DNA of 64,000 nucleotides, taken from Candidatus Spongiisociaceae bacterium. GTDB taxonomy: Bacteria > Actinomycetota > Acidimicrobiia > Spongiisociales > Spongiisociaceae. Location: the NCBI GenBank assembly GCA_965262915.1, contig OZ253564.1, positions 3,456,001 through 3,520,000 of the forward strand, given 5' to 3'. The position numbers and the translations under genes are program-made. Under the pieces are notes generated by a model that made no database searches, had not been told where the DNA came from, and saw nothing but the letters and a program-made list of their open reading frames with translations. This document shows positions 11,663 through 51,320 of this stretch, one piece after another; positions within the stretch are counted from its first letter, which is position 1, and each line of letters starts with the position of its first letter.

Positions 11663-11686
11663 GGCCGGCCTCTCCTTTCTCGCCTA

Positions 11687-11848
11687 ATGGTCTGTCTGTA
11701 AAACAACTTGGCATGCTCTGCTTGCCAGCGACGCCCCTCGCGGCGTTCCGCCTCCTCTACGTACGCTCCCGGTACGCCATCGTCGGCGGGCCTGGCGAGG
11801 AACGCCGCTGCCGGCGCATCCCACGCCGCTATTTCACAGACAGACCAC
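11687..11848. mobile_element. 162-bp MITE-like non-autonomous element, copy 1
   Basis: Terminal inverted repeats (A/G)TGGTCTGTCTGT(A/G)AAA; about 93% identical (12 mismatches by hand alignment) to inverted copy at 26966-27127; folds as a long hairpin. Confidence 0.85.
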
Positions 11849-11862
11849 TTGGAGCCAGGCTA

Positions 11863-15338: not shown

Positions 15339-16933
15339 GCCGCGGTCTCGGCTACACCGGAGCCTCCCATGAGGAGAGCGAGCCGTTCCATATCGAGGCT
15401 TGTCCGGTCCATCTCGCCGACGGTCCCTCCGCGATACACGATCACGATGCGGTCTGCGAGGGCGGTGATCTCGGCGAGGTCCGTGGAGAGGAGCACGACA
15501 CCGATACCCGATGCTGCCGCGCGTAGCAACTGGTCACCCACGAACTCGATGGCCCCGACGTCGAGGCCTCTGGTCGGCTGGTGGGCGACCAGGATCTTGG
15601 GCGCGGCGGAGAGGGCGCGGGCCAGGACCACCCTCTGCTGGTTGCCTCCCGATAGGTGATCGAGGGGCACGTCGGGTCCCGTCGTATGGATGCCGTACTC
15701 CTCGACCAGGTCGAGAGCGTGCCGACGGATCGTCTCGCGCCGCAGAAGGCCTCGGCGCTGCATCCGGTCGAGCGAGGAGAGCATGAGGTTCTCCGCCACG
15801 GTCATGCCCGGAACGCATCCCGACCGGTGACGATCCGCCGGAACCACCACCACCCCCGCGCCGGCCATCGCGCCGGCGACACCGGTGGGAACCGCCTGTC
15901 CTTCTACCTCCACAGTACCGGAGTCGAGACGGCGGAGGCTCGACAGGACGTCGGCCAGCGGGGTCTGACCGTTCCCTTCCACACCCGCCACCCCCACCAC
16001 CTCGCCCGCCCGCACTTCGAGCGAAAGGCTGTCGAGCAGGACCCGTCCGTCGTCCGCCCTCAGCGATGCACCGTCGATACGCAACAGCGGCGTCTCCGCA
16101 TCGGGCATGCCGGCACGACTCTCCCTGCTCTCGATTGCCGCTTCCGGCGGCGCAACGCTGCCGGACATTCCGAGACCCGTAGTCACCGTCCGCAAGGCAA
16201 CCGGGCGCCCCACCATGGCGCGTGCCAGGGACGGAGCGTCGGCATCGGAGGTCCTGACCCGGTCGACCACCCTTCCGTGGCGCATCACGGTGATGCAGTC
16301 GGTGGCCCGAAGAACCTCGTCCAGCTTGTGGCTGACGAGGACCACCGCCCACTTCTCCCGGTCCACGCCCTCGGATAGGACATCGAACAGTTGCTCGGAC
16401 TCGGACGGGCTCAGAACGGAAGTGGGCTCGTCGAGGATGATGATGCGGGGCTCGAGGCGCAGACACTTGATTATCTCGACCCGCTGTCGGATGCCGACCG
16501 ACAGATCGCCCACCAGCGCGTCGGGATCGACCGCCAACCCGTACCGATGCGAGATCTCCGCGACCCGACGCTTGGTGGCGTTCCGATCCAACCGGCCCTG
16601 CTCGCCCAGAGCGACGTTCTCCCAGACCGTGAGGGCGTCGACCAGGCTGTAATGCTGATGCACCATGCCGATGCCACGGCGGGTGGCATCCAGCGGATCG
16701 AGAACCCGGTACGGCGCTCCGTCGATCTCCATCCTGCCGCGATCCGGCAGGGTCAGCCCGAAGATCAGACGCATGAGCGTGGACTTGCCGGCGCCGTTCT
16801 CACCCAGCACCCCGTGCACCTCGCCGCGGTGGAGCGTGAAATCCACGCTGTCGCAGGCCACTACTTTCCCGAAACGCTTGGTCATCCCGGTGAGCGCCAG
16901 GGCCGCCGGAACGGATCCGGGGTCAACGTTCAT
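15335..16933 (-). CDS. Nucleoside/sugar ABC transporter ATP-binding protein
   Basis: GENGAGKST, LSVGIRQRVE, ILDEPT, LSGGNQQR. Confidence 0.95.
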   Translation of the reverse strand: MNVDPGSVPAALALTGMTKRFGKVVACDSVDFTLHRGEVHGVLGENGAGKSTLMRLIFGLTLPDRGRMEIDGAPYRVLDPLDATRRGIGMVHQHYSLVDALTVWENVALGEQGRLDRNATKRRVAEISHRYGLAVDPDALVGDLSVGIRQRVEIIKCLRLEPRIIILDEPTSVLSPSESEQLFDVLSEGVDREKWAVVLVSHKLDEVLRATDCITVMRHGRVVDRVRTSDADAPSLARAMVGRPVALRTVTTGLGMSGSVAPPEAAIESRESRAGMPDAETPLLRIDGASLRADDGRVLLDSLSLEVRAGEVVGVAGVEGNGQTPLADVLSSLRRLDSGTVEVEGQAVPTGVAGAMAGAGVVVVPADRHRSGCVPGMTVAENLMLSSLDRMQRRGLLRRETIRRHALDLVEEYGIHTTGPDVPLDHLSGGNQQRVVLARALSAAPKILVAHQPTRGLDVGAIEFVGDQLLRAAASGIGVVLLSTDLAEITALADRIVIVYRGGTVGEMDRTSLDMERLALLMGGSGVAETAA

Positions 16934-17128: not shown

Positions 17129-18382
17129 CTAGAAGCCGTATGCCCCGGCGAGGATCTCGTAGATCTTATCGTTGAAATCGCCGGCGCCGATGCGGGCGTT
17201 CAGGTCCGCGAGAGCCGCCTCCTGCTCGGCCGTGGCGTTGCAGAAGTCCGCCCCGACCTCGGGATCGATCCCCACGGTAAACCGGCGAACCCCTCCTTCA
17301 AGGGCCGTGCCGTTGAGGATCTCGGTGAAGATGGGAGCGATGTAGTCGCCCGCGTCGAACATGACCTCGAGATCGTATGCCAGATCGTCACGCTCGCATC
17401 CCCTCGACGACCCGGCAGTCATAACGATCAGCCCGTCCGAGTTGGCCAGCTGCGCGATCGCCTCGTGGGCGCCGCCCAGGAACGGGTAGACAGCCGCTAC
17501 TCCTTCGGCCACCGCGGTGTTGTAGGCCTCGGTGGCGCCGGCCGTGTTGTTGAAGTCGAAGGGGTAATTGCCGGTGGGAACGTAGGTGGCGCTGAACGAG
17601 GGATCCACGAGCTGGAGGCCGTACTCGAATGCGGTGAACGACTCCACCTCGAAGTTCAGGTCACAACATCCGAGGAACACCGCGCTGTTGCCCCCGCGTT
17701 CCTGGATCAGGAGGCCGGTGGCATAGCCCGCCGAGATGTTGAGTTCCGCCCCGCTGTCAGCACTGCGGAGCATGCCGGGCGTGTCCTGGAACCCGGATCC
17801 GCAGTTGCAGTACCAGAAGATCTCCTCGTACTCGAGGAAGAGATCCTCGTTGCCGTCGGCGATGCCGCTCGATCCGATCGCGATGACGTCCACGGCTTGG
17901 CTTGCGATGGTCTCCAACTCCTCGCGGGCGTTGGCCTGCTCGACGTTGTCGACTACCAGAGGCGGCTCGTAGCCGGCCTTCTCCGACGTGTCCTCCACCC
18001 ACTCGACCAGAGCCTGGTAATAGGCGCCGTCGTCGCGAGGGCCGTCGGTGACCACCGCGATGCGCACGACGCCGTCACCGTTGAAATCGGCGGCGCCCCA
18101 GTCCGGCGGGGCTGCGGTGGTGTCGAGCATCACGGCCTCCGTGGTTTCGGTTACCGCGGCTGCGGTGCTGTCGGGCGCCGTCGCCTCGGTGCCGGCGGGC
18201 GCCTCGGGCTCGGGCGCCGCCGTGGTGGGAGCGGCCGTCGTCTCGGATGTTTCGGCCACTGTGGTGGTGGACGGCGAGGCGGTGGTGGTGGACGGTTCGG
18301 AGGTATCGCCGTCGCCGCAGGCCGCCGCCACCAGGGCCGCCGCCACCAGTCCTGCCAGGAGCTTCCTCGACCAGCGTTCCAT
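17129..18382 (-). CDS. BMP-family ABC substrate-binding lipoprotein with Thr/Ala/Pro-rich linker
   Basis: ATG 18382 with GGAGG RBS; lipobox AAAC; low-complexity linker; DDGAYYQ, SAGYATG BMP-like core. Confidence 0.88.
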   Translation of the reverse strand: MERWSRKLLAGLVAAALVAAACGDGDTSEPSTTTASPSTTTVAETSETTAAPTTAAPEPEAPAGTEATAPDSTAAAVTETTEAVMLDTTAAPPDWGAADFNGDGVVRIAVVTDGPRDDGAYYQALVEWVEDTSEKAGYEPPLVVDNVEQANAREELETIASQAVDVIAIGSSGIADGNEDLFLEYEEIFWYCNCGSGFQDTPGMLRSADSGAELNISAGYATGLLIQERGGNSAVFLGCCDLNFEVESFTAFEYGLQLVDPSFSATYVPTGNYPFDFNNTAGATEAYNTAVAEGVAAVYPFLGGAHEAIAQLANSDGLIVMTAGSSRGCERDDLAYDLEVMFDAGDYIAPIFTEILNGTALEGGVRRFTVGIDPEVGADFCNATAEQEAALADLNARIGAGDFNDKIYEILAGAYGF

Positions 18383-18581
18383 CCGTCCCGTACCTCCCCT
18401 TGATGCCCGAAGCGGGGATCCTACGCTCTCCCGCTCCTCCTGCCCTGACCGTCCAGCGGCGGCTCCTCCACCGTTGCGGGCTGGTCCGATACGCGGCAAT
18501 CCGGCCAAGTACCGACTCAGGCTAGCGACCGGACCGCGAACCCGTCCACCGGATTCGACCGGAAACCACCGGCCCGCGGTG

Positions 18582-19370
18582 CTACCGAGCAGTGCGGGGA
18601 TGGCCGTGGACCGCCGCGTAGAGCCGCCGCACCATGGCTGTGGGATCCTGGGCGCTCCACGTGTTGCGGCCGAAGGCGATCCCCGATGCTCCGGCGGCCA
18701 CTACATCGGCCGCGTAACGGACCGCATCGTCCTCGCTGTCGCGCTTGGGACCGCCGAGCACGAAAACGGGCGCCTCGCAGTTGCACACGACACGGGGAAG
18801 GTCGCCGATGTCCGGCGGGGCCATCGTCTTGATCGCGTCTGCCCCGAGTTCGATGCAGATGCGGGCGCCCCGGGCGATGTGCTCCGCATCCCACGGAACA
18901 TCCCTTGCCCATCCCCCCGGAATCGACTCGGCGATCACGGGCATCCCGATCTTCTCGCACTCGCACACCAGTTCGGCCAGCCGCCGCAGCGAAGGTCCTT
19001 CCTCGTCCATGCCGGGGTAGACCATGAGAACGACGGCGTCGGCGCCGATCGTGGCTGCCTGCTCGGCCCCGTACAGGAGGGAGAAGCTGTCGCCGGGTGC
19101 GAAACCGCCCATCTGGGTCACGCCGCCGTCCACCCGCAACACGAGACCGCACCGGGCGAACGCTTCCGGGTAGCGCCGGGCGATCTGCCAGGTGGAGAGG
19201 ATCCCGTCCGGCCCTCCGTCGGCAACCTTCTCGACGACATCCAGCGCCGGTCCGTCACCCGAGGCCGATTGCATATCGATCGCCACCAGGAACGCCCGCC
19301 CGTCCCGGCCGATGAACCGGGAGGCCCGGCGCAACTTGCCGGCCCCCACCGCCGAAGAGATGTATTCCAT
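18582..19370 (-). CDS. DhnA/LsrF-type class I aldolase
   Basis: GADAVV, ELGADAIKT (Schiff-base Lys), PVFVLGG, GIAFGRN; ATG 19370 with AGGAGA RBS. Confidence 0.88.
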   Translation of the reverse strand: MEYISSAVGAGKLRRASRFIGRDGRAFLVAIDMQSASGDGPALDVVEKVADGGPDGILSTWQIARRYPEAFARCGLVLRVDGGVTQMGGFAPGDSFSLLYGAEQAATIGADAVVLMVYPGMDEEGPSLRRLAELVCECEKIGMPVIAESIPGGWARDVPWDAEHIARGARICIELGADAIKTMAPPDIGDLPRVVCNCEAPVFVLGGPKRDSEDDAVRYAADVVAAGASGIAFGRNTWSAQDPTAMVRRLYAAVHGHPRTAR

Positions 19371-19426: not shown

Positions 19427-20734
19427 TCACTCCCGCCGCTCGGCCACTTCCAGACGGGCTGTCACCTCGTCCCCGAGGGCGATGAAGCGCTCGAGACCCT
19501 CCCGGTAGGCGGCGGCGGGTTCGGGGTCGAAGGTGGTGACGGGCGGGGTCGGCCAATCACCAGGCCCGCCTTCGCCCGGCCGGGGCCACCAACCTAGCGC
19601 GGCGCCGGCGCCCAGGGCCGCTCCGTAGGCCGCCATCTCGTCGCACTCCGGCACGTCGAACGGGACGCCCAGGACCGATGCCTTGATGGAGGTCCAGAGC
19701 GTGCTACGCGAGGGACCTCCCGAACATACCACCCTCTGCAGGATCACACCCTGGTCCCCCAGGACGCGGGCAATGTGAGCCAGGCCGTAGGCGGTCGATT
19801 CGAGCAACGCCCTCGTGATGATCGGCACCCCGGAACCCGGCCCGAGACCGTGGATGGAGGCGCGCAGCCTCATGTCCCAGCGGGGCGCTCGCTCGCCCTC
19901 CAGGAAGGGCAGCACGATGACCCCGGCAGATCCGGGCGGTACCTCGGCTGCCGCCTCCAGCAGGTCGGGTATCGGCCGGCCGGTGATCCCGGACCACCAA
20001 TCCATGATGGCGCCGTGGGCGGCGACCGGACCGCCAACTATGTAGACGCCGGGCACCGGGCTCGGCATCCCGTACTCGACGGCGGGGGGGTATTCGGCCA
20101 CCGACACTGCCACCCCCAGACCGCCGGTCTTCCCGCCGGGGTCGAAACCCCGCCCCGGAGCATCGATAGAGGCGGCCCATGCCGTCATGAACGCGTCGTT
20201 GCTGCCGGGCGCCAGGACGATGCCTGGAGGAAGCCCCTGGTCTCCCGACGTGACCCCGGCAGGGGAACCGACCGGGACCGGCGTCCCGAATCCGGGAAGC
20301 CCCTCCATCGACGACCATACGCTCTGGATCCCCGGCGAACCTCCCAGGGCGGACACTATGTAGTCCCACATCTGGCGAGGCTCGGCACCGGGCCCGAACC
20401 GTTCCCTCAACACGCCCGCCTGTGCCTCTTGCTGCTCGGTGGGGCCGGCGGTCGCTCCGGCGGGATGACGGAAGGTCACCGCCAGTTCTCCTGTCGACAC
20501 CACCGTGGTGGGACCCTGGCCACCGACGCACAGCGCCGTCGGTCTCTCACAGCCGAGCCCACCGACGGCGCGCGAGAGTCCCGCCAGCCAGATGGCCGGA
20601 TCGACCTCGCCGGTCGGACGCCGGACGCCGGACGTGTATGCCGATCTCGAAGTGGCCACGACGCTCCCGGCCCGGTCTATCGCGACGGCGCGGGCCGCGC
20701 CGCTGCCGATGTCGACTCCGGCGACGATCGGCAT
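19427..20734 (-). CDS. FGGY-family carbohydrate kinase
   Basis: GVDIGSG, LPFLEGERAP, RALLESTAY, SGGPSRS. Confidence 0.9.
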   Translation of the reverse strand: MPIVAGVDIGSGAARAVAIDRAGSVVATSRSAYTSGVRRPTGEVDPAIWLAGLSRAVGGLGCERPTALCVGGQGPTTVVSTGELAVTFRHPAGATAGPTEQQEAQAGVLRERFGPGAEPRQMWDYIVSALGGSPGIQSVWSSMEGLPGFGTPVPVGSPAGVTSGDQGLPPGIVLAPGSNDAFMTAWAASIDAPGRGFDPGGKTGGLGVAVSVAEYPPAVEYGMPSPVPGVYIVGGPVAAHGAIMDWWSGITGRPIPDLLEAAAEVPPGSAGVIVLPFLEGERAPRWDMRLRASIHGLGPGSGVPIITRALLESTAYGLAHIARVLGDQGVILQRVVCSGGPSRSTLWTSIKASVLGVPFDVPECDEMAAYGAALGAGAALGWWPRPGEGGPGDWPTPPVTTFDPEPAAAYREGLERFIALGDEVTARLEVAERRE

Positions 20735-21753
20735 CAGCCGTTCTCGAACTCCACGAACACGCGATAGGTCGGTTCGGAGGTCACCAGCGTGAGGGCATCG
20801 CCCAGGCCCGCCAGGGGGAACCGGGCGGATACCAGACGGTTGAGCTGGTCGGCGATGACTCCGGAGCGTATGATGGTCGAGGCCCGTCTCCAGTCCTCCG
20901 GCTCCTGGTTGAAGGCTCCGACGATGGCCACCTCCTCGCGGTGAGACCTGTCGGCGCCCACCGAGGCGGTCACGTCCTTGTCGAACGCGCTGTAGAGAAC
21001 CACGGTTCCCCCGCGGTCGGCCAGTTCCACGGCCAGGTCCACCCCTCCCATGGCAGCCACGAAGACTACGTCTGCCCGATCCCCCACCTCCATGGCATCG
21101 CCCGGCTCGGCAACCCAGTCGGCGCCGACCTCGAGGGCCTCGGACCGGCGAGCGGCCGACAGATCGATCACGCCGATGGTCGAGGCGCCGCCCAGCCTGG
21201 CCAGGGCCATGTGGATCCGTCCCATGAGGCCCCCGCCGATGATGGTCACCCGATCACCCGGTCTGAACCGACCCTGACGCAGGGAGTGGACGCAGCAGGC
21301 GATCGGTTCCCCCATCGCGGCATGGGCCATCGGCGCATCGCCAACCGGATGGACCGACTTGGCGTCGACCGCGATCCTCTCGGTGAACCCGCCGAACGCC
21401 ACCGTGCCATCGGACAGCCTCCGTCCCTGCCGGTATTGGCACAGACCGGTCTTGCCCCGCCGGCACGGTCCGCAGGTGAGGCATCGGGTGAGCAGGTCGA
21501 TGGTTACGCGATCACCAACCTGGGGAGAGCCCACCAGCCCGTCCACCCCTGTGCCGGCGGCCACGATGACCCCGGCGGCCTCGTGGCCCGGCGAGACCGG
21601 ATACCAGAGTTTGTCGCCCGCGAAGAGCCGGCGTTCGAGGGTGCATATACCGCACGCGGCTATATCGACCAGCACTTGGTCGGCGCCCGGGGTGGGGACG
21701 GGCTCCTGGCGGAATTCGACCTCTCCGGGTCCCGTGATGACTGCTGCTTTCAA
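20734..21753 (-). CDS. Zn-dependent MDR alcohol/polyol dehydrogenase
   Basis: CGIC...GHE catalytic Zn, CxxCxxC...C structural Zn, GGGLMG nucleotide binding; TTG start with GGGAGG. Confidence 0.92.
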   Translation of the reverse strand: MKAAVITGPGEVEFRQEPVPTPGADQVLVDIAACGICTLERRLFAGDKLWYPVSPGHEAAGVIVAAGTGVDGLVGSPQVGDRVTIDLLTRCLTCGPCRRGKTGLCQYRQGRRLSDGTVAFGGFTERIAVDAKSVHPVGDAPMAHAAMGEPIACCVHSLRQGRFRPGDRVTIIGGGLMGRIHMALARLGGASTIGVIDLSAARRSEALEVGADWVAEPGDAMEVGDRADVVFVAAMGGVDLAVELADRGGTVVLYSAFDKDVTASVGADRSHREEVAIVGAFNQEPEDWRRASTIIRSGVIADQLNRLVSARFPLAGLGDALTLVTSEPTYRVFVEFENG

Positions 21754-21863
21754 GATGCCTCCCGGATGCGCTCAGCGGAGCAGCCCCGCTCCACTACCTG
21801 CCCGCTTTCTGGAGTTGTGACCGTACCATCCCCCATCGCAGTGGTTCGGGGGCCGGCGCGCCG

Positions 21864-22100
21864 CTACCAACCGCTCTCAGCGGTCTTGATGGTCGCCGAC
21901 TTCTGCGGAAGTACTCGCGCCTGGCATCCGGACCCTCGCTCACTCCATGGCCGCTCGATCTTTAGAGGTGCGGCTCACCTCGAAGGCGGTCATGTAGTAG
22001 TGGGTGACCTACACCTGCCCCGCTTCCAGCCGGTTCGCCACCGGGTGGGCCTTGCCGGACTCTCCGTCCGGACAGCCGAGACCAGGCCGTACCGGCTGTT
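21864..22100 (-). pseudogene. Degraded 3' fragment of an aldehyde dehydrogenase gene
   Basis: Across frameshifts and a stop: NSRYGLVSAVRT / AHPVANRLEAGQV* / GHGVSEGPDARREY / KSATIK, matching the ALDH C-terminal consensus. Confidence 0.6.
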
Positions 22101-22229
22101 GGGTCGGTAGCCCGGTTCTTCGTGTATGGATCAGGACTCTGAGCCCCACAACCGGGCAGGCCATGGAGGCCGCTCCGCCGGGCGCACGCCACGTCTTCCC
22201 TGAAGACCGGAACGGTCACTCGAACTATC

Positions 22230-22682
22230 TCAGTCCCTGTACAACGCCACCCACTTGATGATCTCGTCGACTTCGGCCGACAGCTCCATCAGGCCGACGT
22301 GCTCGTCGTAGAGATCGCCGTCCATCTGTGCCTTTATCTCCGGCTCCAGCACGTGATATACAGGAAGTCCCAACGGGACTCCGGCCAACGGACCCGCCCA
22401 GGTCGGATCGCCTCTCGTCACCGTCTCCGCGAAGAGACCGGCGCTGTTGGCGTCCGGCTGGCCCAGCACCACGACCATGTCGTCGGTACCGGAAGTCTCG
22501 GCCAGGCGGTTTACGTTCGCCTGGTCCTCCAAGTCCATGGCGCCCCCCGCCGTTCAGACGAAACACTGGGTGACGCTGAACACCACGGTGGCACCGGCCG
22601 ATTCGGCCAGCAGCTTGAGGCTGGGGCCGTTGACGCCTTCGCGCTCGCCGATGGCCACCACCCGCTTACCGTTCAGATCCAT
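22230..22682 (-). CDS. grdA: Glycine/sarcosine/betaine reductase selenoprotein A (Sec at codon 43, 150 aa)
   Basis: ATG 22682 with AAAGGAGG RBS; MDLNGKRVVAIGEREGVNGP...TQCFV-UGA(22556-22554)-TAGGAMDLEDQ...ETVTRGDPTWAGPLAGV, the GrdA CxxU motif. Confidence 0.93.
22518..22542 (-). promoter_or_regulatory. Putative bacterial SECIS hairpin of grdA
   Basis: CGCC-A-UGG...CCA-GGCG stem starting 11 nt after the UGA, with GG in the apical region. Confidence 0.5.
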
Positions 22683-22763
22683 GCGTGGACCTCCTTTCAT
22701 TGCCTTTCGAGACCGGTCGAACCCGCGGGCCGCTCACCACCACGATACGTCCGGACCGCCAGC

Positions 22764-23633
22764 ATAGATCGCTTTGGTAAGGCCGGGATCGACTACAAAC
22801 CAACGGCGAACATACTAACGCTGGCTAGCGGGTTCATGGACTCCTACGACTTCACTCTCAATCCGTACAGCGGATGCTCCTTCGGTTGTACCTATTGCTA
22901 TGCCGCATTCTTCAGCCCGGACAAACAGAAAAGAGATTCCTGGGGGGACTGGGTGGTAGTCAAAGAGAACGCAGTCGAGTTGATGAGAAGGCGTAGGCGC
23001 GGTGGATTGGACGGAAGGCGCATCTATATGAGCAGTGTGACCGATCCTTACCAGCCCATTGAGAGGAAGCTGGAGATTACCCCGGAATTGCTCAAGATCA
23101 TGGCCGAGCATCACAGGCCGAAGCTAATGGTACAGACCCGTAGCCCCCTCGTCGTGCGGGACTGTGACCTGTTCCGGCAGATCGAGGGGAGCGGTGGAAG
23201 GGTTCAAGTCAATATGACGGTCACCACCGACGATATGGACATCATGCGAACGTTCGAGCCGCTCTGCCCTCCCAACCGGAAACGCTTGGAGGCGATCACA
23301 AAGATACGGGAGGCCGGTGTCGAGTCCTGTATCACGATGACACCCCTGCTGCTGGTCAGCAACGATCACGAATTCGCCGATAGCCTGATCGAGACCGGGG
23401 TCCAGAAGTTCATCGCCCAGCCCTTCCACTTCAAGAAGGGCAAGTTCGTGGCCAACACCCGCCAGGAAGCCTTCGACCTGATGTCGGAGAAGCTCGGCTG
23501 TAACCGTGGAAACTTCATTCCCAGATACCTCGGGGCCTATGACGAGTTCGTCCGGATGTTCAAGATGAGGCTACTCGAGGAAGGGCTACCGGAACTGGGG
23601 ATAGGCAAGTCCGGCTTCGAACCACCGTGGTAA
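22764..23633 (+). CDS. Radical SAM protein, spore photoproduct lyase-like family (start uncertain: ATA 22764 or ATG 22836)
   Basis: LNPYSGCSFGCTYCYA (CxxxCxxC), MSSVTDPYQPIE, QTRSPLV, FEP. Confidence 0.85.
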   Translation: MDRFGKAGIDYKPTANILTLASGFMDSYDFTLNPYSGCSFGCTYCYAAFFSPDKQKRDSWGDWVVVKENAVELMRRRRRGGLDGRRIYMSSVTDPYQPIERKLEITPELLKIMAEHHRPKLMVQTRSPLVVRDCDLFRQIEGSGGRVQVNMTVTTDDMDIMRTFEPLCPPNRKRLEAITKIREAGVESCITMTPLLLVSNDHEFADSLIETGVQKFIAQPFHFKKGKFVANTRQEAFDLMSEKLGCNRGNFIPRYLGAYDEFVRMFKMRLLEEGLPELGIGKSGFEPPW

Positions 23634-23661
23634 TGGCCCCCTGTCCGGTAATCAGATAAAG

Positions 23662-24078
23662 CTACAGCCTGAGCACCGGCACGTCCGGCGACTCAGGCCG
23701 GGGGCCCAGTGTCCGGTTCCGGCAGTCAGCAACCAGATCGAGTTCCTCCATGACGAGTTGACCGATCAACGGGTCGGCGCCCGGCGGCACCACGACGCAT
23801 CGAGCGAACGTCCAGCGGTCACCGATGTGCACGGTCAAGGGGCCGGCAATCGCTAGCTCACCTCGCCGACCGTCCGCGTAGGCGAAGGTTCCGCTGCCCA
23901 CAACCTCTACGCCGAGCCGCTCCACGACATCCGCGGGCAGCGCGAGCATCAGCGCACCTGTATCCGCAACAGCGCTGACCGTAGCCCGGCGGATTTCCGT
24001 CTCCCGGAGGATTCCCTTGTTGACCATCGCGCGGTCTTCCGCGTTCTGCAACTCGATGTCAACGACGATCTCGCCCAT
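23662..24078 (-). CDS. Clan AA (retropepsin-like) single-domain aspartic protease
   Basis: ADTGA catalytic motif, YADGR flap, PLIGQLVMEELDL. Confidence 0.85.
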   Translation of the reverse strand: MGEIVVDIELQNAEDRAMVNKGILRETEIRRATVSAVADTGALMLALPADVVERLGVEVVGSGTFAYADGRRGELAIAGPLTVHIGDRWTFARCVVVPPGADPLIGQLVMEELDLVADCRNRTLGPRPESPDVPVLRL

Positions 24079-24176
24079 AGCTCGGCTTCAACTCCCCTCT
24101 CCGGCGTGTTCGCAGTGTGATTCGCAAGTGTATCGATGTATCAGTCATACCTGCTAACACTCACATACTAACACTA

Positions 24177-25625
24177 CTATGAGCCAGCCTCTGGTCGGTG
24201 GCCAGAAGCGGAGGGTCGTTCCACCACGAAGGACACCCCGTCGACCAACTGCGTCATCCTGCCCAGGAACAGGCTGCCCTTGGCGATGATCATCGCCCGA
24301 TCCAGCTCGCCTCGGCGCATGGCCCGGTGCGCGTGGCCGAGGTAGGGGACGCCGGCCGGAATGTGGCCTTGCGTTGGGGCGAACCCCGGCATCCCACGCT
24401 CGGTCACGAACCTGTCCATCTCGCCCCTTTGTATCTCGCCCCGCAGGACCGCCATCGCCGCCAGGGTGCGGTAGTTGGTCCTGGGTACGTCGCCGCTCCC
24501 ACCCGGTTCGGTGATCTCCGGGTTGTGCATCTCCACCGCGTACCGATCGATGTCGGTCATGCCGAGACCGGCCCTCACCAGCGGTTCCACCACCAGCGCC
24601 TCGTAGACAGCCCGCGACGACGACCCGGCCCCTATCGGATGCCGGCCGGTGAGGTCGAGACGCAGTCGCATACCGTCGCCGTCGGCGGGACCGACCAGGA
24701 AGGCCATCGAAGCCAGGCAGTCCTCCATCACGGGTACCCCGTTGCGAAGGTGGGCGGCGAACTTCATGCCCAGCTTGGCCTGCGACCCGCCGCCCAGTAC
24801 CACCACGTACTCGTGAAGACCCGCCGCGACCATCGCCCCGGCCGCGATCAGGGCATGCACGGGTGCGGCGCAGAAAGCCTTGATATCGGACCCCGTGGCG
24901 TTCACGCAGCCGACCACCTCCCCGACGGCCTTCGACAGGCTACCCCCGCCCCGCTGGTAACGGTCCCCCACCGCCTCCTCCCCGCTGTTGAACAGGTAGT
25001 CCACCCGGGATGCCGGAAGGGCGCTCCGGATCATCAGGTCCGAGACGGCAAGCACCGCGGTCGCCTTGGCAGCCAGATTCTCGAACAGCACATGGGCGGA
25101 CAGCGACGCGTCCTGTTCGTGGGCGGTGCGCATGAACCCGGCCACCCTCCCCCCGTCGTAAAGGGGAAGTCCGCTGCTGCGGTCCATGATCTCCCCCAAT
25201 TCGGCCGGCCCGACACCGGTGATGCGGTCCATCCGGTGACCGAAGGCGGTCAACTCCGCCCTGGCCCGGTCCGCCAATCGCTGGTCGATGGTGAGAAGGT
25301 CGAAGTCGTCGCACAACTTCATCAGCCCGTAGAGCGCGGCCTGGGTAACCAATCGGCCTAACGGCCCGGTGGACCGGGCGGGGACAACCCTGTTCTCGTA
25401 CCAGGGGCGGGGGATGGAGGCGAGGTCGTCAGGAGCGAGGTTGCCGATGAAGGTCTGGTTGGGCGGGTAACCGACCACCTCCTCCCAGGGGCGGAGGGCC
25501 TTGGTCAGCCGTGCCGACAGGGAAGGGTCCCTCTCGATCTCGCGGACTGGTTTCGATCCGTACCGGACGAAATCGGGAGCGTGGGCCAGCGCGTAGGACG
25601 TGTCGAGGATGGCGGGTAACGGCAT
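24177..25625 (-). CDS. grdC: Glycine/sarcosine/betaine reductase component C, FabH-like subunit
   Basis: EEAVGDRYQRGGG, NATGSDIKAFCAAPVH, KLGM, HNPEITEP, PTQGHIP, KGSLFLGRMT. Confidence 0.93.
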   Translation of the reverse strand: MPLPAILDTSYALAHAPDFVRYGSKPVREIERDPSLSARLTKALRPWEEVVGYPPNQTFIGNLAPDDLASIPRPWYENRVVPARSTGPLGRLVTQAALYGLMKLCDDFDLLTIDQRLADRARAELTAFGHRMDRITGVGPAELGEIMDRSSGLPLYDGGRVAGFMRTAHEQDASLSAHVLFENLAAKATAVLAVSDLMIRSALPASRVDYLFNSGEEAVGDRYQRGGGSLSKAVGEVVGCVNATGSDIKAFCAAPVHALIAAGAMVAAGLHEYVVVLGGGSQAKLGMKFAAHLRNGVPVMEDCLASMAFLVGPADGDGMRLRLDLTGRHPIGAGSSSRAVYEALVVEPLVRAGLGMTDIDRYAVEMHNPEITEPGGSGDVPRTNYRTLAAMAVLRGEIQRGEMDRFVTERGMPGFAPTQGHIPAGVPYLGHAHRAMRRGELDRAMIIAKGSLFLGRMTQLVDGVSFVVERPSASGHRPEAGS

Positions 25626-25652
25626 CAGACTGCACTCTCCAGGGTCACCAGG

Positions 25653-26962
25653 TCACCAATCGGCGAATATTCGGGCTTCGTGGAGAGTAGTGGCAGCCGC
25701 CCTGAGGGCCTTGCACACCTGCTCGCGGCGCCAGGCGACCTCTTCGCCGGGCGTACGTACCGGGTAGCCCACCGGGTGGGGGATGAGGCCCGACGAACGG
25801 ATCCGGTTCGCCCCGGCGACCTTCGCTATCGATGTCATCGCGGTGAGCAGGGTGGCCGGTATCCCGTGCTTCTCGATCATCTTGCACATCGTTGCACCGC
25901 AACGCGTCCCGGTCCCTCAGGTACTGGTGGCGACGACCGCCTGGACCCCGTCGGCTCGGAGCCGGCGGGCGATCTCGGCGCCCATCCGCTCCGCGTCGGT
26001 CACGGTGGTACCGGTGCCCGTCGTCACGTAGACGTAGTCGTGGAGCTTGCCGATGGCGCCTTCCTCGGCCAGGGCGCGTAGGGCGTCGATCGGCACCAGC
26101 CGGTTGGGGTCGGCATCAACCCACTGCGAGTCGTAACCCGCATGGATGGACCGGAACACGGGCCACCGGTTGTCCTCGATCATGGCGAGCGGGTACCGGG
26201 CCCAGCGGGTGGCGCCGGAGGATTCGATGCGGTCCGGGTTGCCCTCCGGCACGAGCCCCCTTCGGTCAGGATGGCGACGGTGGTGGTCGACAGGTCCGCT
26301 ACTGCGGGCGCCGGTGGGACCGTCTCGGCCTGGGCCGGGAGCCGTACCTCGCTGGTGTACGGTTCGCCACCGACCTTGGCCATCAGCATGTCGAGGGCCC
26401 TGGCAGCCACCGGCGTGCGGTTCACCCAGGCGCCGCGGTAGCCCATGGGAATCCTCCCGTCATCGGCCGCCGGAAGCAGGTCCCCGCCGCGGGCGAGGCG
26501 GAGCCCGACCCTTGCCATCGACTCGAGCGCCGGGCGCATCCCGGCAGCCGAGTCGGCCGTGGCCACCATGACCACCCGGCTGCGGTAGACATCGACCGCC
26601 GGGGCATCAGGGAAGAGCCCGACAACCGCGGGGATCCCGAGCCGCTCCCTCGCGCCCGCTGCCACCGCCGCGCAGGCCAGCCCGTAGCGGCCGGCATTGA
26701 AGGCAGGGCCGGCCAGCACCAGATCCGGCTCGACTTCGGCGATGGCGGCGAGAGCGACATCGAGGTTCGCGTCCGCATCGGCGTGAAAGGCGTTGTCACC
26801 ACACACCAGGGTCCGCACGATCCTGGCCCCGTCATCAAGTAGCTGCTCGAGGGCCCGACCCGAACCGACCACCCCGTCGTGAACCTGCAAGGGGGTGCCC
26901 GCCCTGTCCTCGCCGCCGATCCCCCCGAAGAACTGGTTGAGGTAATGAACCATGCGGATCAT
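25653..26962 (-). CDS. grdB: Reductase selenoprotein B (GrdB/GrdF/GrdH family); Sec at about codon 349; 1-nt frameshift at 26256-26260 (error or pseudogene)
   Basis: Three ORF pieces join to 436 aa: HYLNQFFGGIGGE..GPAFNAGRYG..TEGG|LVPEGNPDRIES..HAGYD..DPNR..TST-UGA(25919-25917)-GTGTRCGATM..GANRI..IPHPVG. Confidence 0.88.
25890..25904 (-). promoter_or_regulatory. Bacterial SECIS hairpin of grdB
   Basis: Perfect CGUUGC-GGU-GCAACG stem-loop starting 12 nt after the in-frame UGA, G first in loop. Confidence 0.8.
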
Positions 26963-26965
26963 CTA

Positions 26966-27127
26966 GTGGTCTGTCTGTGAAATGGCGGCGTGGTATGCGC
27001 CGGCAGCGGCGTTCCTCGCAAGGCCCGCCGACGAAGGCGTACCGGGAGCGTACGTAGAGGAGGCGGAACGCAGCGAGGGCCGTCGCTGGCAAGCAGAGCA
27101 CGCCAGGTTATTTTGCAGGCAGACCAC
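26966..27127. mobile_element. 162-bp MITE-like element, copy 2, between grdE stop and grdB start
   Basis: TIRs GTGGTCTGTCTGTGAAAT / ATTTTGCAGGCAGACCAC; flanking TA (or CTA) duplication; inverted relative to copy 1. Confidence 0.88.
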
Positions 27128-28416
27128 TAAAAGGCCCTTCCGGTGAGTATGTTGCCGCCCAACTGGTTGACGCCGCAGTAGTGGTAGTACATCTTGAGGT
27201 CGAACGGGCCGCGGGCCGGCGTTTCTCCGTCGAGCAGCAGGTCGTCCCCGATCACCCGCCCGACCTCCGGCATGGTCACGATCTCGTCCTCGGAGCCGAC
27301 GCTGACGATAGCGTCGGCCTCGGGCACCGTGTAGAAGAGCGGGAAGTCGTACCCGTCGATGCCCGGCGCCTCCGACGAGACGACGACGGTCCTGATACCG
27401 GCCTGCTCCATGTACCGGCAGGCGAGCATCATGTCGATGGCCGAGTTGCCGCCCCCCTCGGCAGTGAGAACCGCCCCGTCTGCCCCTAGGAAGCCGCCGA
27501 GCTTGGCCGCCCAGTGGGACGAGCGCTCCTTGTCCTCCTGGGTGTAGTTGTGGCCGCGGTTGATGATGACCCCGGCGAAGTTCAGGTCCCGGCCGTGACG
27601 AGCTGCGAGCTCCCGGATGATCGGGTTGTTCTGGTGGAGGAAGGTGGGGTTCTTATAGCAGGCGTACACGTGGACCCCGCTCACGATGGCGCCGTCGATC
27701 ACCTCGTTGGGGTGGATGAGCGTGGGAACCAGGTTGTGGATGGTCCGCCCGTACAGGTAGGTGTCGGCCATGCTGCCCTGTCCCTGGAGCTGGTAGAAGT
27801 AGACGACGTTCGGCAGATCGGGGTGGGGGGTCGAGAAGTCGAATGTCGTCGTGGAGTCGGCTACGGCATCGGCGGTCAGGAGTGCCCGCCGGGCGACCAT
27901 CTCGGCCACCCGGAGCGTTGCTCTCCGGATGGCGTCGTCGTAGTCGTCGTTTCCCACGGTGGGATTCGGGGTGTATACCAGCACCACGTTGCAGACCCGC
28001 GACATCGGGCTGTAGACAGCGGTCGGGCCGGACATGTCCACCACCGCTTCGCGTGCCTGGAGCAGTCCCGATAAGGGCTGGGGATAGCGGCTCGACGCCA
28101 GCACGCTCACCCCGTCGATACGCACGGTTCGGCCCTCGCCTACGGTGTCCATGCCGCCGAGGAAACCCGGAAACACGGTCCCGACCCCCGGCTTGGTACG
28201 GGGTTCGACCGCGTCGAGGCAATGCACGATACGCACGTCCTCCCCCGGTCGGGCTACGGCAACTTCGACATCGGCGATGCGGGCGTCCGAGAGAACGGTG
28301 GACGCCACTTCCCGGTTCGAGATCGTCAGGGTGTGCCCGGACACCGAGGTGGCGTTGCCGAGCCGTACGTCTTCTATGTGAATGGACCGCACATCGAGCC
28401 GCAAGGATCGCCGCAT
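27127..28416 (-). CDS. grdE: Reductase component B proprotein (GrdE/GrdG family)
   Basis: DAVEPRTK, FPGF, VGEGRT, DMSGP, PTLIHPNEVIDGAIVSG..ACYKNPTFLHQNNP, EGGGN, ADAIVSVG. Confidence 0.88.
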   Translation of the reverse strand: MRRSLRLDVRSIHIEDVRLGNATSVSGHTLTISNREVASTVLSDARIADVEVAVARPGEDVRIVHCLDAVEPRTKPGVGTVFPGFLGGMDTVGEGRTVRIDGVSVLASSRYPQPLSGLLQAREAVVDMSGPTAVYSPMSRVCNVVLVYTPNPTVGNDDYDDAIRRATLRVAEMVARRALLTADAVADSTTTFDFSTPHPDLPNVVYFYQLQGQGSMADTYLYGRTIHNLVPTLIHPNEVIDGAIVSGVHVYACYKNPTFLHQNNPIIRELAARHGRDLNFAGVIINRGHNYTQEDKERSSHWAAKLGGFLGADGAVLTAEGGGNSAIDMMLACRYMEQAGIRTVVVSSEAPGIDGYDFPLFYTVPEADAIVSVGSEDEIVTMPEVGRVIGDDLLLDGETPARGPFDLKMYYHYCGVNQLGGNILTGRAF

Positions 28417-28429
28417 GCCTGGATCCAGC

Positions 28430-29356
28430 CTACCGCGCCGGCTGTCGCCGCGAGTCGCGGATCCGAATGAGGTCGGTCACCACCACCCCCAGCAGAACTA
28501 GCGCACCCCCTACGACGATTCCCGGCTGGATCTGCTCGTCCAGCATCACAACACCGGCAGACACGGCAATGAACGGGACGATGTAGCCGATGATCGTGGA
28601 GTAGGTGACGGTGACGTGGCGGATGAGGAAGTAATAGAGGCCCAACGGGACCAACGTCCCCAGTGAACCCACGTAGAGCAGGCTGAGCTGACCAGTCATC
28701 GAGGGGGTGGCGGGTACACCTTCGATTGCCAGCGCCAAGAGGGACAGGGCAACGCAACCGATGGCGAGCTGGACCCCCGTCACACCGAGCACCGAGTACT
28801 GACCGGCGTAGCGCTTGGCATAGACGGCCGCGACCGATACGGACACCACGCTGACGAGTACGAACAGTCCGGCCAGGAGTGGGTTGCCGCCTTCCGCGAC
28901 CCCCGAGTCGCCCCCGAGCAGCAGTACCGCCACCCCGCCGAGCCCCAGCAGCAGACCGACCAAGGTGACGACTTTCAGCCGCTCGTTGGCCAGCATGAAA
29001 TGCGCCACCAGCGCTGTCACCAGCGGGATCAGCGCGTTGACCAGGGACACGAAACCGGCCGAAGCATTCTCGAGAGCCAGGTTCCGTGTCTGGTAGGGCA
29101 GCAGCACGCTGAGCACCGACAGCACCGCCCCCATACGCAGTTCGAGCGGACCGACCAGCGTCCCCCGCCTCCGCCCAGCAATCAGGAAGATGACCGCTAC
29201 CGCCGCGATCAGCGAGGAAGCGGCGGCGATAGTGATCGGCCCCAACCCCTCACGGAGGGCCATCCTCACCGCGATGGGAGAGGAACCCCACCCGAAGCTG
29301 ATGAGGAGCACGAGCGCCCAGACCCGGCGGTCCGAGATGACAGATTTCACGGCCAA
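28430..29356 (-). CDS. EamA/DMT-family transporter
   Basis: About 10 TM helices in two EamA repeats (GWGSS, HFMLANER, VMLDE); 13 nt upstream of grdE. Confidence 0.9.
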   Translation of the reverse strand: MAVKSVISDRRVWALVLLISFGWGSSPIAVRMALREGLGPITIAAASSLIAAVAVIFLIAGRRRGTLVGPLELRMGAVLSVLSVLLPYQTRNLALENASAGFVSLVNALIPLVTALVAHFMLANERLKVVTLVGLLLGLGGVAVLLLGGDSGVAEGGNPLLAGLFVLVSVVSVSVAAVYAKRYAGQYSVLGVTGVQLAIGCVALSLLALAIEGVPATPSMTGQLSLLYVGSLGTLVPLGLYYFLIRHVTVTYSTIIGYIVPFIAVSAGVVMLDEQIQPGIVVGGALVLLGVVVTDLIRIRDSRRQPAR

Positions 29357-31163: not shown

Positions 31164-32768
31164 ATGGCGACGCAGCTCAAATACTGGGGATGGGGGTACG
31201 AAGGGGACGGCCTTTCGCCTTGTGACAGGGAGGCCCTGCTCAGCACCTTCGCTGCGGACTTCGGTATACATCCGTCAGGTGACTGTGGCGTACCGCGTCT
31301 CGACGAGCTCACGCTCCCACCGCCCCGGATGGAACCGCCGACGAGCCTCGCAGCGATATGCACGCAGGAACCTTACGAGCGGATCCTGCACAGCTTCGGG
31401 CAGTCCCAGCCCGATTCGATCCGGATCTTCGCCCGGGACTTCGCCCACGCTCCCGATGTGGTGGCCTACCCGCGGGACGAAGCCGATGTGATGGCAGTGC
31501 TCGAGTGGGCGGGTGAGGCGGGAGCGGCTCTGATCCCTTTCGGTGGTGGTTCGTCGGTCGTGGGCGGAGTGACGCCCGACATCGATGACCGGTACACGGC
31601 AACCGTAACCCTCGACATGAGCCGGATGAACCGGGTCCTCGAGGTCGACCCTGTGTCGAGGTCGGCGCGGATACAAGGCGGGGCGCGCGGTCCCGAACTG
31701 GAAGCCGCTCTGAAACCGCGCGGGGTAACGCTCCGCCACTTCCCCCAGTCCTTCCAGCATTCCACCCTGGGCGGATGGATCGCTACCCGGTCGGGCGGTC
31801 ACTTCGCGACCCTGTACACCCATATCGACGACCTGGTGGAGAACGTGACCATGGTCACACCGGCGGGCAGGATGGAGTCGCGCCGGCTTCCGGGGTCGGG
31901 TGCCGGTCCGAGTCCCGACCGGCTGGTCATTGGCTCTGAGGGTTCGCTCGGAGTGGTCACCGAGGCCTGGGTGAGGGTCCAGGGTCGGGTGTCCTTCAAG
32001 GCCACGGCCGGGTTCCGCTTTCCGGACTTCCTCGCGGCCGCCGGGGCCGTGCGAGCGATAGCGCAGGCAGGCTTGTTCCCCGCCAACGTCCGGATCGTCG
32101 ACGGGGTGGAACTGGCGGTGAACGGGGCCGGGGACGGTTCGTTCACGCTCATGGTGGTCTCCTTCGAGTCGGCCGACCGTCCTGTCGACGCCTGGATGGA
32201 CCTCGCCGAGCAATGCGCCCTCGACCACGGAGGGGTGCCCGATGTCGACTGGCACACCAGCCCCGACAGCCACCTGCGGGGAGCGGTCGGCGCCTGGCGC
32301 GACGCCTTCATCAGGATGCCCTACAACCGGGAGGTACTCACGCCGCTAGGCATCATCTCAGACACCTTCGAGTCGTCCATCACCTGGGACCGCTTCGAAG
32401 CGTTCTACCACGTGGTCACGGACGCCACCCACCGTGCCATCCGCGAGGCGACCGGTCAGAGCGGCGCCGTGTCATGCCGGTTCAGCCACGCCTATCCGGA
32501 CGGTCCGGCCCCGTACTTCGCTTTCCACTGCGCCGCACGGCCGGGCTCCATGCTGGAGCAGTGGTGGGAGATAAAACGTGCCGTCTCCGACGCAGTGATC
32601 GACAACGGAGGCACCATCACCCACCATCACGCCATCGGCCGCGATCACCAGCCGTGGTACGAGAAGCAGCGCCCCCAACTGTTCGGCGAGGTTCTCGCGA
32701 GGGCCAAGGCCCACCTCGATCCGAAGGGAGTCCTCAACCCCGGCGTGCTCATGTCTCCGGATAGATAG
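31164..32768 (+). CDS. FAD-linked oxidoreductase, alkyl-DHAP synthase-like (VAO/PCMH family)
   Basis: PFGGGSSV, RHFPQSF, TLGGWIATRSGG, GSEGSLGV, TITHHHAIG, DPKGVLNPG. Confidence 0.9.
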   Translation: MATQLKYWGWGYEGDGLSPCDREALLSTFAADFGIHPSGDCGVPRLDELTLPPPRMEPPTSLAAICTQEPYERILHSFGQSQPDSIRIFARDFAHAPDVVAYPRDEADVMAVLEWAGEAGAALIPFGGGSSVVGGVTPDIDDRYTATVTLDMSRMNRVLEVDPVSRSARIQGGARGPELEAALKPRGVTLRHFPQSFQHSTLGGWIATRSGGHFATLYTHIDDLVENVTMVTPAGRMESRRLPGSGAGPSPDRLVIGSEGSLGVVTEAWVRVQGRVSFKATAGFRFPDFLAAAGAVRAIAQAGLFPANVRIVDGVELAVNGAGDGSFTLMVVSFESADRPVDAWMDLAEQCALDHGGVPDVDWHTSPDSHLRGAVGAWRDAFIRMPYNREVLTPLGIISDTFESSITWDRFEAFYHVVTDATHRAIREATGQSGAVSCRFSHAYPDGPAPYFAFHCAARPGSMLEQWWEIKRAVSDAVIDNGGTITHHHAIGRDHQPWYEKQRPQLFGEVLARAKAHLDPKGVLNPGVLMSPDR

Positions 32769-42017: not shown

Positions 42018-42049
42018 TCCCGGTCTTCTTCCGGCAGCCACCGATGCTA

Positions 42050-42175
42050 GCGGTCTGTCTGCAAAATGATTCGGCGTGTCCTGGCAGCCATCGACGCACC
42101 GGCTGCCTCTCGCCTCCTCGACGTACACTACGGTACGCCTTCGTCGACTGGCCTCGCGAGGAACGCCGCCGTCTG
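42050..42175. mobile_element. Diverged, right-end-truncated third member of the MITE family
   Basis: CTA-GCGGTCTGTCTGCAAAAT left end and conserved core CGCCTCCTCGACGTAC..GGTACGCCTTCGTCG..GGCCTCGCGAGGAACGCCGC; no right TIR found. Confidence 0.7.
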
Positions 42176-45309: not shown

Positions 45310-45312
45310 TAA
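44524..45312 (+). CDS. IS5-family DDE transposase
   Basis: GCKWRALP, LDSTSVKVH, GRSRGGLNTKIH, ADRAY, YKRRNEVERLF; stop codon uses the target TA. Confidence 0.95.
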   Translation: MTITQEQYQLIVDVFPKPRGTVKVSNLQALNGILYLLEHGCKWRALPERFGNWHTVYMRMSRWAASGVLDRVFQRLQQEQLIDLEVLGLDSTSVKVHPDGCGALRKRGPQAIGRSRGGLNTKIHMVAASACSAVLFALSPGQDHDAPHGRELLKKMGPRKKEQEGEQLELFLVADRAYEGDETRQLAVALGYTPVIPPRSNRRHPWDYNRPIYKRRNEVERLFRRLKGYRRVFTRYDKLDVMFLAFITLALIHDTLRNVNTP

Positions 45313-48820: not shown

Positions 48821-48834
48821 GTGGAATCCTCTCG

Positions 48835-49508: not shown

Positions 49509-49545
49509 GACCCGCTCCTGCCTGCAACTACACAGGACTTAGCCG

Positions 49546-51318: not shown

Positions 51319-51320
51319 TG

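Follow-up and report, generated by a model that had tools for sequence, protein, structure and literature searches.

The 64,000-nt stretch of a Candidatus Spongiisociaceae genome analysed here (the window), part of a single contig of 5.06 Mb with 64.4% GC, carries at 22230-29356 a cluster encoding an EamA-family permease and relatives of GrdE, GrdB, GrdC and GrdA. Selenoenzymes of the glycine-reductase type are known from textbooks as Stickland enzymes of strict anaerobes. The original prediction for this DNA, made from the letters alone, had described the gene order EamA-grdE-grdB-grdC-grdA on the minus strand; genes and coordinates were borne out, but a frameshift in grdB, a miniature inverted-repeat transposable element (MITE) and two genes inserted between grdC and grdA had been missed. 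The features of the cluster, and of the co-linear ~16-kb array that it heads, are as follows (window coordinates, strand in brackets; Sec, selenocysteine; SECIS, selenocysteine insertion sequence; ABC, ATP-binding cassette).

28430-29356 (-): EamA-family permease (Pfam EamA, 115.9 bits), 13 nt upstream of grdE
27127-28416 (-): GrdE-like subunit of 429 aa (PF09338, 401.7 bits), without the pyruvoyl-forming Cys
26964-27129 (no strand): MITE-like repeat of 166 nt between grdE and grdB
25653-26962 (-): GrdB-like selenoprotein B, whole gene, in two frames (PF07355, 255.6 + 137 bits)
26258-26962 (-): N-terminal part of GrdB, 235 codons, frame 1 (TIGR01918, 202.7 bits; PF07355, 255.6 bits)
26256-26260 (-): run of five Gs at which a 1-nt deletion splits grdB, with 2 nt between the halves vs 3 in relatives
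25653-26255 (-): C-terminal part of GrdB, 200 codons, frame 2 (TIGR01918, 212.6 bits; stop codon at 25653-25655)
25917-25919 (-): in-frame Sec codon TGA of grdB (motif TSTUGTGTRCG)
25880-25916 (-): SECIS element of grdB (Rfam SECIS_4, 30.3 bits, E 9.5e-4)
24177-25625 (-): GrdC, 482 aa, thiolase/KAS-III-like (NF040746, 589.5 bits, cut-off 450)
23662-24078 (-): clan AA aspartic-protease-like gene (TIGR03698, 40 bits, under cut-off), an insertion outside the system
22791-23633 (+): radical SAM gene, PA0069/Rv2578c-like (PF04055, 51.6 bits), an insertion outside the system
22230-22682 (-): GrdA, selenoprotein A, 150 aa, CFVU motif (NF040748, 198.5 bits, cut-off 130)
22554-22556 (-): Sec codon TGA of grdA, with a hairpin at ~22520-22533
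20734-21753 (-): Zn-dependent alcohol dehydrogenase (Pfam ADH_N, ADH_zinc_N)
19427-20734 (-): FGGY-family kinase, xylulokinase-like (PF02782; best PDB match xylulokinase 5vm1, E 1.2e-22)
18600-19370 (-): class I aldolase of the DhnA/FbaB/ADH-synthase type (PF01791, 83 bits; NF005556, 148 bits; PDB MJ0400, 2qjg, E 2.6e-31)
17129-18508 (-): BMP/PnrA-family ABC substrate-binding protein (homologues are named BMP-family substrate-binding protein and carry PF02608)
15335-16933 (-): ATPase of the same ABC importer (Pfam ABC_tran, twice)
14199-15338 and 13264-14199 (-): two permeases of the same importer (BPD_transp_2)

The in-frame TGA of grdA occupies the identical position in all eight orthologues fetched, and that of grdB is matched in eight (seven, plus L025 in a second comparison; L numbers denote the loci compared), with conserved coding sequence continuing beyond the codon in both genes. 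Directly 3′ of the grdB codon lies the SECIS_4 match, whose score is below the Rfam gathering score of 38, and the conserved hairpin GCGUUGC-GGN-GCAACGC shows a single compensatory change, from U:A to A:U, in a paralogue; in grdA a hairpin CYUGG-N4-CCAGG follows 20 nt past the UGA. GrdA has the CxxU motif, as CFVU, and is 82-95% identical to its orthologues, and the Sec motif of grdB reads UGTGTRC(G) vs UGTCTRC(G) in reference GrdB and GrdH. Judged from the conservation of codons and hairpins, both TGAs are Sec codons, in agreement with the two UGAs and SECIS-like hairpins first proposed. GrdD, thioredoxin/TrxB and SelABCD are all missing within the window, as had also been noted, and the wider genome encodes selA (433.7 bits), selB (333.2 bits), selD (390.3 bits) and a tRNA-Sec, together with a housekeeping TrxB (403.6 bits), so that missing Sec machinery is no reason to consider the cluster dead. 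The selD gene itself (4560939-4561865 of the genome contig) contains one in-frame TGA, and selenophosphate synthetase is therefore probably a selenoprotein here.

All four Grd proteins fall into the expected families. Both halves of GrdB exceed the cut-off of the selenoprotein B subfamily TIGR01918 (65.45 bits), and GrdA and GrdC pass the equivalog cut-offs listed above; identity to the glycine reductase of Acetoanaerobium noterae (L029) amounts to 39-41% for GrdB with its Sec, 50% for GrdA with its CxxU, 43% for GrdC and 37% for the GrdE-family subunit. All substrate-specific NCBIfam cut-offs were missed widely: glycine GrdB TIGR01917 (186.3 + 185.6 bits, 372 summed, cut-off 602.2), sarcosine NF040794 (218.9 + 200.3 bits, 419 summed, cut-off 800), betaine GrdH NF040795 (184.1 + 211.3 bits, 395 summed, cut-off 775) and fluoroacetate reductase FarE NF053623 (160 bits, cut-off 675). 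Sarcosine NF040793 (GrdG) is the best NCBIfam match of the GrdE-like subunit, yet it too was missed (321.1 bits, cut-off 780). The reference loci, taken from a plasmid collection, gave the following scores.

A. noterae GrdB: TIGR01917, 940 bits (cut-off 602)
A. noterae GrdH: NF040795, 807 bits (cut-off 775)
Enterococcus gilvus GrdH: NF040795, 792 bits (cut-off 775)
Photobacterium GrdB: TIGR01917, 604 bits (cut-off 602)
A. noterae GrdD, positive control of the GrdD search: NF040747, 581 bits (cut-off 350)

A GrdB tree of 19 rows (the window with X at the break, eight orthologues, L028, two paralogues, four references and three PrdB-like outgroups), built without loci L039-L051 and without a sarcosine reference, grouped the window clade with support of 100/100 and placed it outside the glycine references and outside the two GrdH (betaine) references, with the paralogues and L028 as its sister (98/97). 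The proteins thus do not sit within the canonical glycine reductase clade, and the earlier suggestion of an uncharacterised variant agrees with both the tree and the missed cut-offs. D-proline reductase is only distantly related to the window proteins (PrdA 45 bits, PrdB 84 bits) and was used here as tree outgroup and for locating the pyruvoyl Cys; PrdAB works with a pyruvoyl group and without GrdA or GrdC. Of 8,000 candidates that were scored, 1,318 database proteins matched at E <= 1e-10; JGI and NCBI sources name homologues "glycine reductase" or "sarcosine reductase". The nearest relatives of GrdE, at 69-78% identity, come from metagenome-assembled genomes of Acidimicrobiia, including Candidatus Spongiisociaceae, plus one contig binned as Kiloniellaceae, and GC content at third codon positions (GC3) of the EamA gene, grdE, grdB, grdC and grdA is 0.83-0.87, like the remaining window; the host-like codon usage and actinobacterial origin read from the letters were both right. 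PDB sequence searches with GrdE, a GrdB paralogue and GrdC returned no match at E 0.01, and the ESM Atlas confirmed the Pfam family of GrdE and nothing further. Our literature searches on glycine and betaine reductases in Acidimicrobiia or Actinobacteria, on grdC/grdD and on selenoproteomes yielded no description of this Acidimicrobiia system, and a search on Spongiisociaceae yielded nomenclature only; PMC5029168, in the part available, counts organisms with GrdA and GrdB and holds nothing on GrdD-less forms.

The system departs from its characterised relatives at the cofactor site and in its subunit composition. In these reductases the pyruvoyl site is needed for primary and secondary amines. 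Its position was fixed by ungapped alignment to the PrdA site ...HALT|CIGPASK (peptide CIGPASK) and by the numbering of PMC9908766, in which the C. difficile numbering of the pyruvoyl-forming Cys agrees with Cys242 of A. noterae GrdE. His249 of the window protein aligns with this residue, and the 120 listed homologues have Tyr (86), Phe (18) or His (16) there, with Cys, Ser or Thr in none; among the references, both glycine-type GrdE have Cys and the betaine GrdI has Phe. Since the pyruvoyl Cys is missing, as in GrdI, the moiety X that leaves the substrate is expected to be a good leaving group. The earlier proposal of a different amine substrate is only loosely right, the site that primary and secondary amines require being absent.

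GrdD, thought to make acetyl phosphate, is the other missing component. The best match of the GrdD hidden Markov model (NF040747) in this genome scored 22.4 bits, and tblastn of the single-contig genome with two canonical GrdD sequences gave nothing at E 1e-3. In the genomes sampled, GrdC is encoded by 4 of 151 from the class and by 15 of 401 from the phylum (13 of 399 without two unpublished genomes, G288 and G461). GrdD exceeded its cut-off in none of the three other GrdC-positive genomes of the class and none of 12 further ones of the phylum, hence in none of the 16 GrdC-bearing Actinomycetota genomes tested, this one included. In this lineage GrdC retains one invariant Cys and lacks three Cys and a C-terminal tail of ~25 aa common to three GrdD-associated GrdCs. 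In the three reference loci trxB adjoins the grd genes, unlike the window cluster, in which there are no trx genes; tblastn with the array proteins revealed no further conserved gene in the relatives' loci, no search there having been aimed at trx. On the strength of these comparisons, the lineage holds a real two-selenoprotein Grd-family system that is GrdD-less, pyruvoyl-less and uncharacterised. With both the cofactor site and GrdD dropped, the last step must work differently and the substrate must be other than glycine.

The genes conserved beside the grd cluster, namely those of the Zn-dependent alcohol dehydrogenase, the FGGY kinase, the class I aldolase and the ABC importer, give a concrete substrate hypothesis. 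At its most compact the arrangement is seen in L023, where grdE, grdB, grdC, grdA, an aldehyde dehydrogenase gene and the dehydrogenase, kinase and aldolase genes follow one another with spacers of 16-54 nt. The whole ~16-kb array is co-linear with the window in L049, L050 and L051, from genomes of the same order (L051 and L025 are probably one genome), and runs there from the EamA gene or contig end through the four grd genes, aldehyde dehydrogenase, alcohol dehydrogenase, kinase and aldolase to, in some loci, a flavin-reductase-like gene, followed by a VOC-family gene, a GntR/FCD regulator, the BMP-family substrate-binding protein, the ABC ATPase and two permeases. The flavin-reductase-like gene is found in L050 (PF01613), and tblastn gave a match of 38% identity in the corresponding position of L051. 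Orthologues of the window alcohol dehydrogenase, 66-76% identical, occupy the same place in L020, L023, L024, L025, L049 and L050; the kinase has syntenic orthologues in relatives, and the ATPase and two permeases have co-linear ones in L049, L050 and L051. The aldehyde dehydrogenase gene directly follows grdA in L021, L023, L024, L025, L027, L039, L049 and L050 and is missing from the window, which keeps the alcohol dehydrogenase, kinase, aldolase, substrate-binding protein and ABC genes. With the window EamA protein as tblastn query, an orthologue was found to precede grdE immediately in L019 (two copies), L020, L025, L026, L041 and L049, and none in L021, L022 and L024.

Across genomes of 59-71% GC the array is contiguous and co-directional. 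Among the 151 genomes of the class the aldolase occurs in five and GrdC in four, all four shared, and neither in 146. An AlphaFold model of the substrate-binding protein (pLDDT 81.2) matched the fold of the BMP family, to which riboflavin-binding RfuA belongs, with PnrA as the top Foldseek match (2fqw, E 5e-15) and RfuA with riboflavin at rank 6 (4iil, E 1.7e-13); 4iil was also the sole match in a sequence search of the PDB, at a non-significant E of 0.53.

We propose, with a probability of roughly 45%, that the grd genes encode a Sec-dependent reductase forming the last step of this catabolic array and acting on the stub of a riboflavin-like N-ribityl compound. Starting from the protein families, Sec codons, missing Cys and GrdD, and synteny described above, we infer substrate, catalytic steps and acetyl fate as follows. 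The BMP-type ABC system would import a compound whose ring nitrogen bears a sugar-alcohol chain, most likely riboflavin or another N-ribityl heterocycle. The Zn-dependent dehydrogenase would oxidise the chain and the FGGY kinase phosphorylate its end, whereupon the class I aldolase could free dihydroxyacetone phosphate and leave an N-CH2-CHO stub (formylmethylflavin), to be converted to N-CH2-COO- (carboxymethylflavin) by the aldehyde dehydrogenase whose gene is present in the relatives' operon and missing here. More generally, the gene logic points to a substrate in which a heteroatom carries a polyol chain; these steps would then yield X-CH2-COO-, the very type of compound that Grd enzymes cleave. 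The Sec of GrdB would then displace the ring nitrogen, a good leaving group for which pyruvoyl would not be needed; the carboxymethyl group would move to the Sec of GrdA, with reduction by the housekeeping thioredoxin system, and GrdC would bind it through its invariant Cys as an acetyl thioester, the acetyl acceptor in a GrdD-less system being possibly CoA, phosphate or water.

The proposal matches the sole published hint on anaerobic riboflavin breakdown. According to PMC13492142 (J Bacteriol 2026), Clostridium scindens converts riboflavin to lumichrome anaerobically, and riboflavin induces its fin genes ("flavin induced neighbourhood"), which encode a kinase, a class I aldolase, a Zn-dependent alcohol dehydrogenase, an aldehyde dehydrogenase, permeases and two Grd-family proteins. 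The authors propose that a triose is released and that the Grd-family pair then strips off the 2-carbon stub; in the same paper, Faecalicatena fissicatena is without the aldehyde dehydrogenase and the Grd pair and its product is hydroxyethylflavin, and Table S3 names K16306 (class I aldolase/ADH synthase) among the KEGG Orthology groups specific to C. scindens and B. coccoides. The window likewise brings together a class I aldolase (18600-19370), a Zn-dependent dehydrogenase (20734-21753) and a Grd-family pair (25653-28416) with a kinase and permeases, its relatives adding an aldehyde dehydrogenase, and the proposed logic is alike, in that a triose would be released and the stub then removed from a ring nitrogen. 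Several differences stand beside this likeness: the window neighbourhood lacks the aldehyde dehydrogenase (finG), the regulator of the relatives is of the GntR/FCD type whereas that of fin is a sugar-binding regulator, GrdA, GrdC and the BMP-type ABC importer belong to the Acidimicrobiia array, and the Acidimicrobiia hosts respire whereas the fin hosts are gut anaerobes.

A number of points weigh against the ribityl-stub proposal. The kinase is of the FGGY type, whereas that of fin (finB) is a RibF-like riboflavin kinase, and the parallel with finHI, finC and finD is one of enzyme types as described rather than of compared sequences. The nearest structural neighbours of the substrate-binding protein are nucleoside binders (PnrA), RfuA ranks sixth, and the fold cannot distinguish between ligands. 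The genomes sharing aldolase and GrdC are kin, from one order, so that their co-occurrence is not statistically independent. The gene logic would be equally consistent with any 1-X-1-deoxy-pentitol or similar compound, arsenosugar-, methylthio- or sulfo-substituted stubs being conceivable alternatives, and the clade is known from sequence alone. In addition, this genome has no match for the relatives' aldehyde dehydrogenase orthologue (the best aldehyde dehydrogenase is just 42% identical), VOC-family and flavin-reductase-like genes, its closest GntR gene is a paralogue of just 30-36% identity, and grdB is frameshifted here. If the proposal is true, it would identify the enzyme for the unexplained final step from formylmethyl- or carboxymethylflavin to lumichrome, extend known Grd-family chemistry and explain the retention of Sec machinery in aerobic Actinomycetota, in a lineage frequent among uncultured Acidimicrobiia of marine, sponge-associated and groundwater habitats.

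Other functions for the same genes have to be set against this proposal. An ordinary glycine or sarcosine reductase of divergent sequence, serving Stickland-type energy conservation or running in reverse to make glycine, would account for the presence of all four core families and for the database labels of the homologues, but it is very improbable: the scores reach only 372 of 602 bits (TIGR01917), 419 of 800 (NF040794) and 321 of 780 (NF040793), neither pyruvoyl Cys nor GrdD is present, the cluster lacks the trx genes of the three reference loci, the clade is split from the glycine references with 98/97 support in a tree holding no sarcosine reference, and a haem-copper oxidase subunit I in the genome (519 bits) means that the organism respires. 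Nothing was found in favour of the reverse, glycine-forming direction originally considered. Somewhat less remote, though still unlikely, is a reductase of the betaine type or for another X-CH2-COO- compound (a quaternary amine, a sulfonium compound, a halo- or similar acetate) carried in or out by the EamA permease, with the dehydrogenase, kinase and aldolase forming a separate polyol operon. The GrdE-like subunit indeed shares its missing pyruvoyl Cys with betaine reductase GrdH/GrdI (E. gilvus L030/L032, A. noterae L033), the EamA gene is tightly linked to grdE, and the relatives' aldehyde dehydrogenase scores best as a betaine-aldehyde dehydrogenase (481 bits, not reaching the cut-off of 668); moreover, in the subclade of the window, L019 and L022 the grd genes persist although the sugar-type genes are partly or wholly lost. 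GrdB nevertheless stays at 395 of 775 bits for GrdH and outside the two GrdH references, the window has no GrdD, no BCCT transporter and a different gene neighbourhood, and the array is contiguous, co-directional and conserved over a wide range of GC, with GrdC and the aldolase co-occurring. A paralogous GrdE/GrdB pair beside a choline sulfatase (588 bits, over cut-off) is also a better betaine candidate in this genome.

The integrity of the cluster bears on the matter in a different way, as it may be that the grd module is off in this strain or assembly owing to the frameshifted grdB. At the run of five Gs the gene is one base short, the tblastn halves being 2 nt apart vs 3 nt in 8 of 8 genome relatives, and a metagenome scan for grd loci (11, mostly short) found the halves in frame in all loci spanning the break site. 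Contigs of runs X5, X6 and X9, from three other studies, carry a sixth G at full depth, that of X5 with only one substitution in 1,110 nt besides the extra base, so that grdB is intact elsewhere in the same population. In X1, which is probably the source sample and is one of four same-sample runs that hold 98-99% of the words, an exact contig of 3.6 kb has the five-G allele at full depth, with the extra base at 0 of 13.7 depth, which speaks against a simple assembler slip. In the source sample we lean to a real strain-level frameshift, with a systematic homopolymer error as the other option, and annotation of this window needs care accordingly. That strain might then hold a decaying pseudogene cluster, its operon further disrupted by the MITE between grdE and grdB and by ~1.5 kb of foreign DNA with two genes between grdC and grdA, and its accessory aldehyde dehydrogenase, GntR, VOC-family and flavin-reductase-like genes lost. 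This is a serious possibility, although we would wager against it: the MITE junction also occurs in the near-identical contigs with the sixth G, which shows the MITE by itself to be tolerated, the remaining genes are intact with high GC3, the Sec machinery is kept, two further GrdE/GrdB pairs depend on the single GrdA and GrdC, and no library type is recorded for X1, which leaves room for a systematic homopolymer error. Programmed frameshifting at the G run was also considered and rejected, the heptamer being poorly slippery and the relatives and other samples simply having the extra base.

Both insertions have their own signatures. The MITE has 20-nt terminal inverted repeats (85% complementary) and belongs to a family with 116 blastn high-scoring pairs in the 5.06-Mb genome, 74 of them at least 120 nt and hence nearly full-length, including copies at 11685-11849 and 42048-42169 of the window; in four metagenome runs the summed depth of its contigs is very high, and it is thus widespread in those communities. 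It is missing from the grdE-grdB spacer of relatives, in which the two genes abut, and its junction is also present in X5, X6 and X9. In most relatives grdA lies 30-570 nt after grdC, vs ~1.5 kb with two genes between in the window, and neither the aspartic-protease-like nor the radical SAM gene was found between grdC and grdA in relatives. The 2-kb bin holding the inserted genes (22001-24000; insert ~22700-24100) has 61.6% GC vs 66-69% in flanking bins. A promoter and terminator scan of 21700-24300 gave 0 sites of either kind, and none of the 24 runs listed for sequence of this organism is an RNA run.

GrdC and GrdA are single-copy in the genome, which besides the window pair encodes two more Sec-containing GrdE/GrdB pairs, an extra GrdE-like protein and one PrdB-like selenoprotein. 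The second pair (L016, 7677-13139, in genome contig 3101001-3121000) has a BKACE-family (3-keto-5-aminohexanoate cleavage enzyme-like) gene and the choline sulfatase gene on its flanks, and is a candidate betaine/choline-type module sharing the single GrdA/GrdC. The third pair, together with the extra GrdE-like gene, lies at 4189-15853 of L017 (genome contig 2779001-2799000), surrounded by genes for an Opp-type ABC transporter, a Rid-family protein and an M24 peptidase/creatinase-like protein. The PrdB-like selenoprotein (L018, 9276-10259, minus strand; genome contig ~4665276-4666259) has a VPVUPVCH motif, scores 162 bits with TIGR04483 (cut-off 300) and stands next to menB; tblastn found no GrdE/PrdA-like match at that locus. 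A broader and more speculative reading, which we hold to be doubtful, would join these modules: respiring Acidimicrobiia might use GrdE/B-like proteins with GrdA and GrdC, free of pyruvoyl and GrdD, as a general carboxymethyl remover, one GrdA/GrdC pair serving three GrdE/B modules, and the array would convert riboflavin-type N-ribityl compounds, without need of O2, into lumichrome-type rings, an acetyl unit and dihydroxyacetone phosphate. The Grd system would then be a modular platform for the reduction of C-X bonds beyond anaerobic fermentation, in which GrdC would pass acetyl to CoA unaided.

Further genes of the window lie beyond the array. A FAD-linked oxidase gene (FAD_binding_4 + FAD-oxidase_C; 31164-32768, plus strand) stands upstream of the EamA gene, has an 82%-identical copy near the L019 cluster, and is a possible accessory gene of the subclade to which the window belongs. 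The link to N-heterocycle catabolism genes drawn in the original prediction found no support, the molybdopterin dehydrogenase (5338-7743) and the hydantoinase/oxoprolinase genes (49669-59152) being at least 15 kb and at least 20 kb, respectively, from the grd cluster, past unrelated genes and a transposase. The latter genes belong to a minus-strand block at 47186-59152 with three hydantoinase-B/oxoprolinase paralogues, one hydantoinase A, two DUF885 genes and, within it, a PIN-domain gene; an IS4/5 transposase gene (44524-45312) lies just outside this block.

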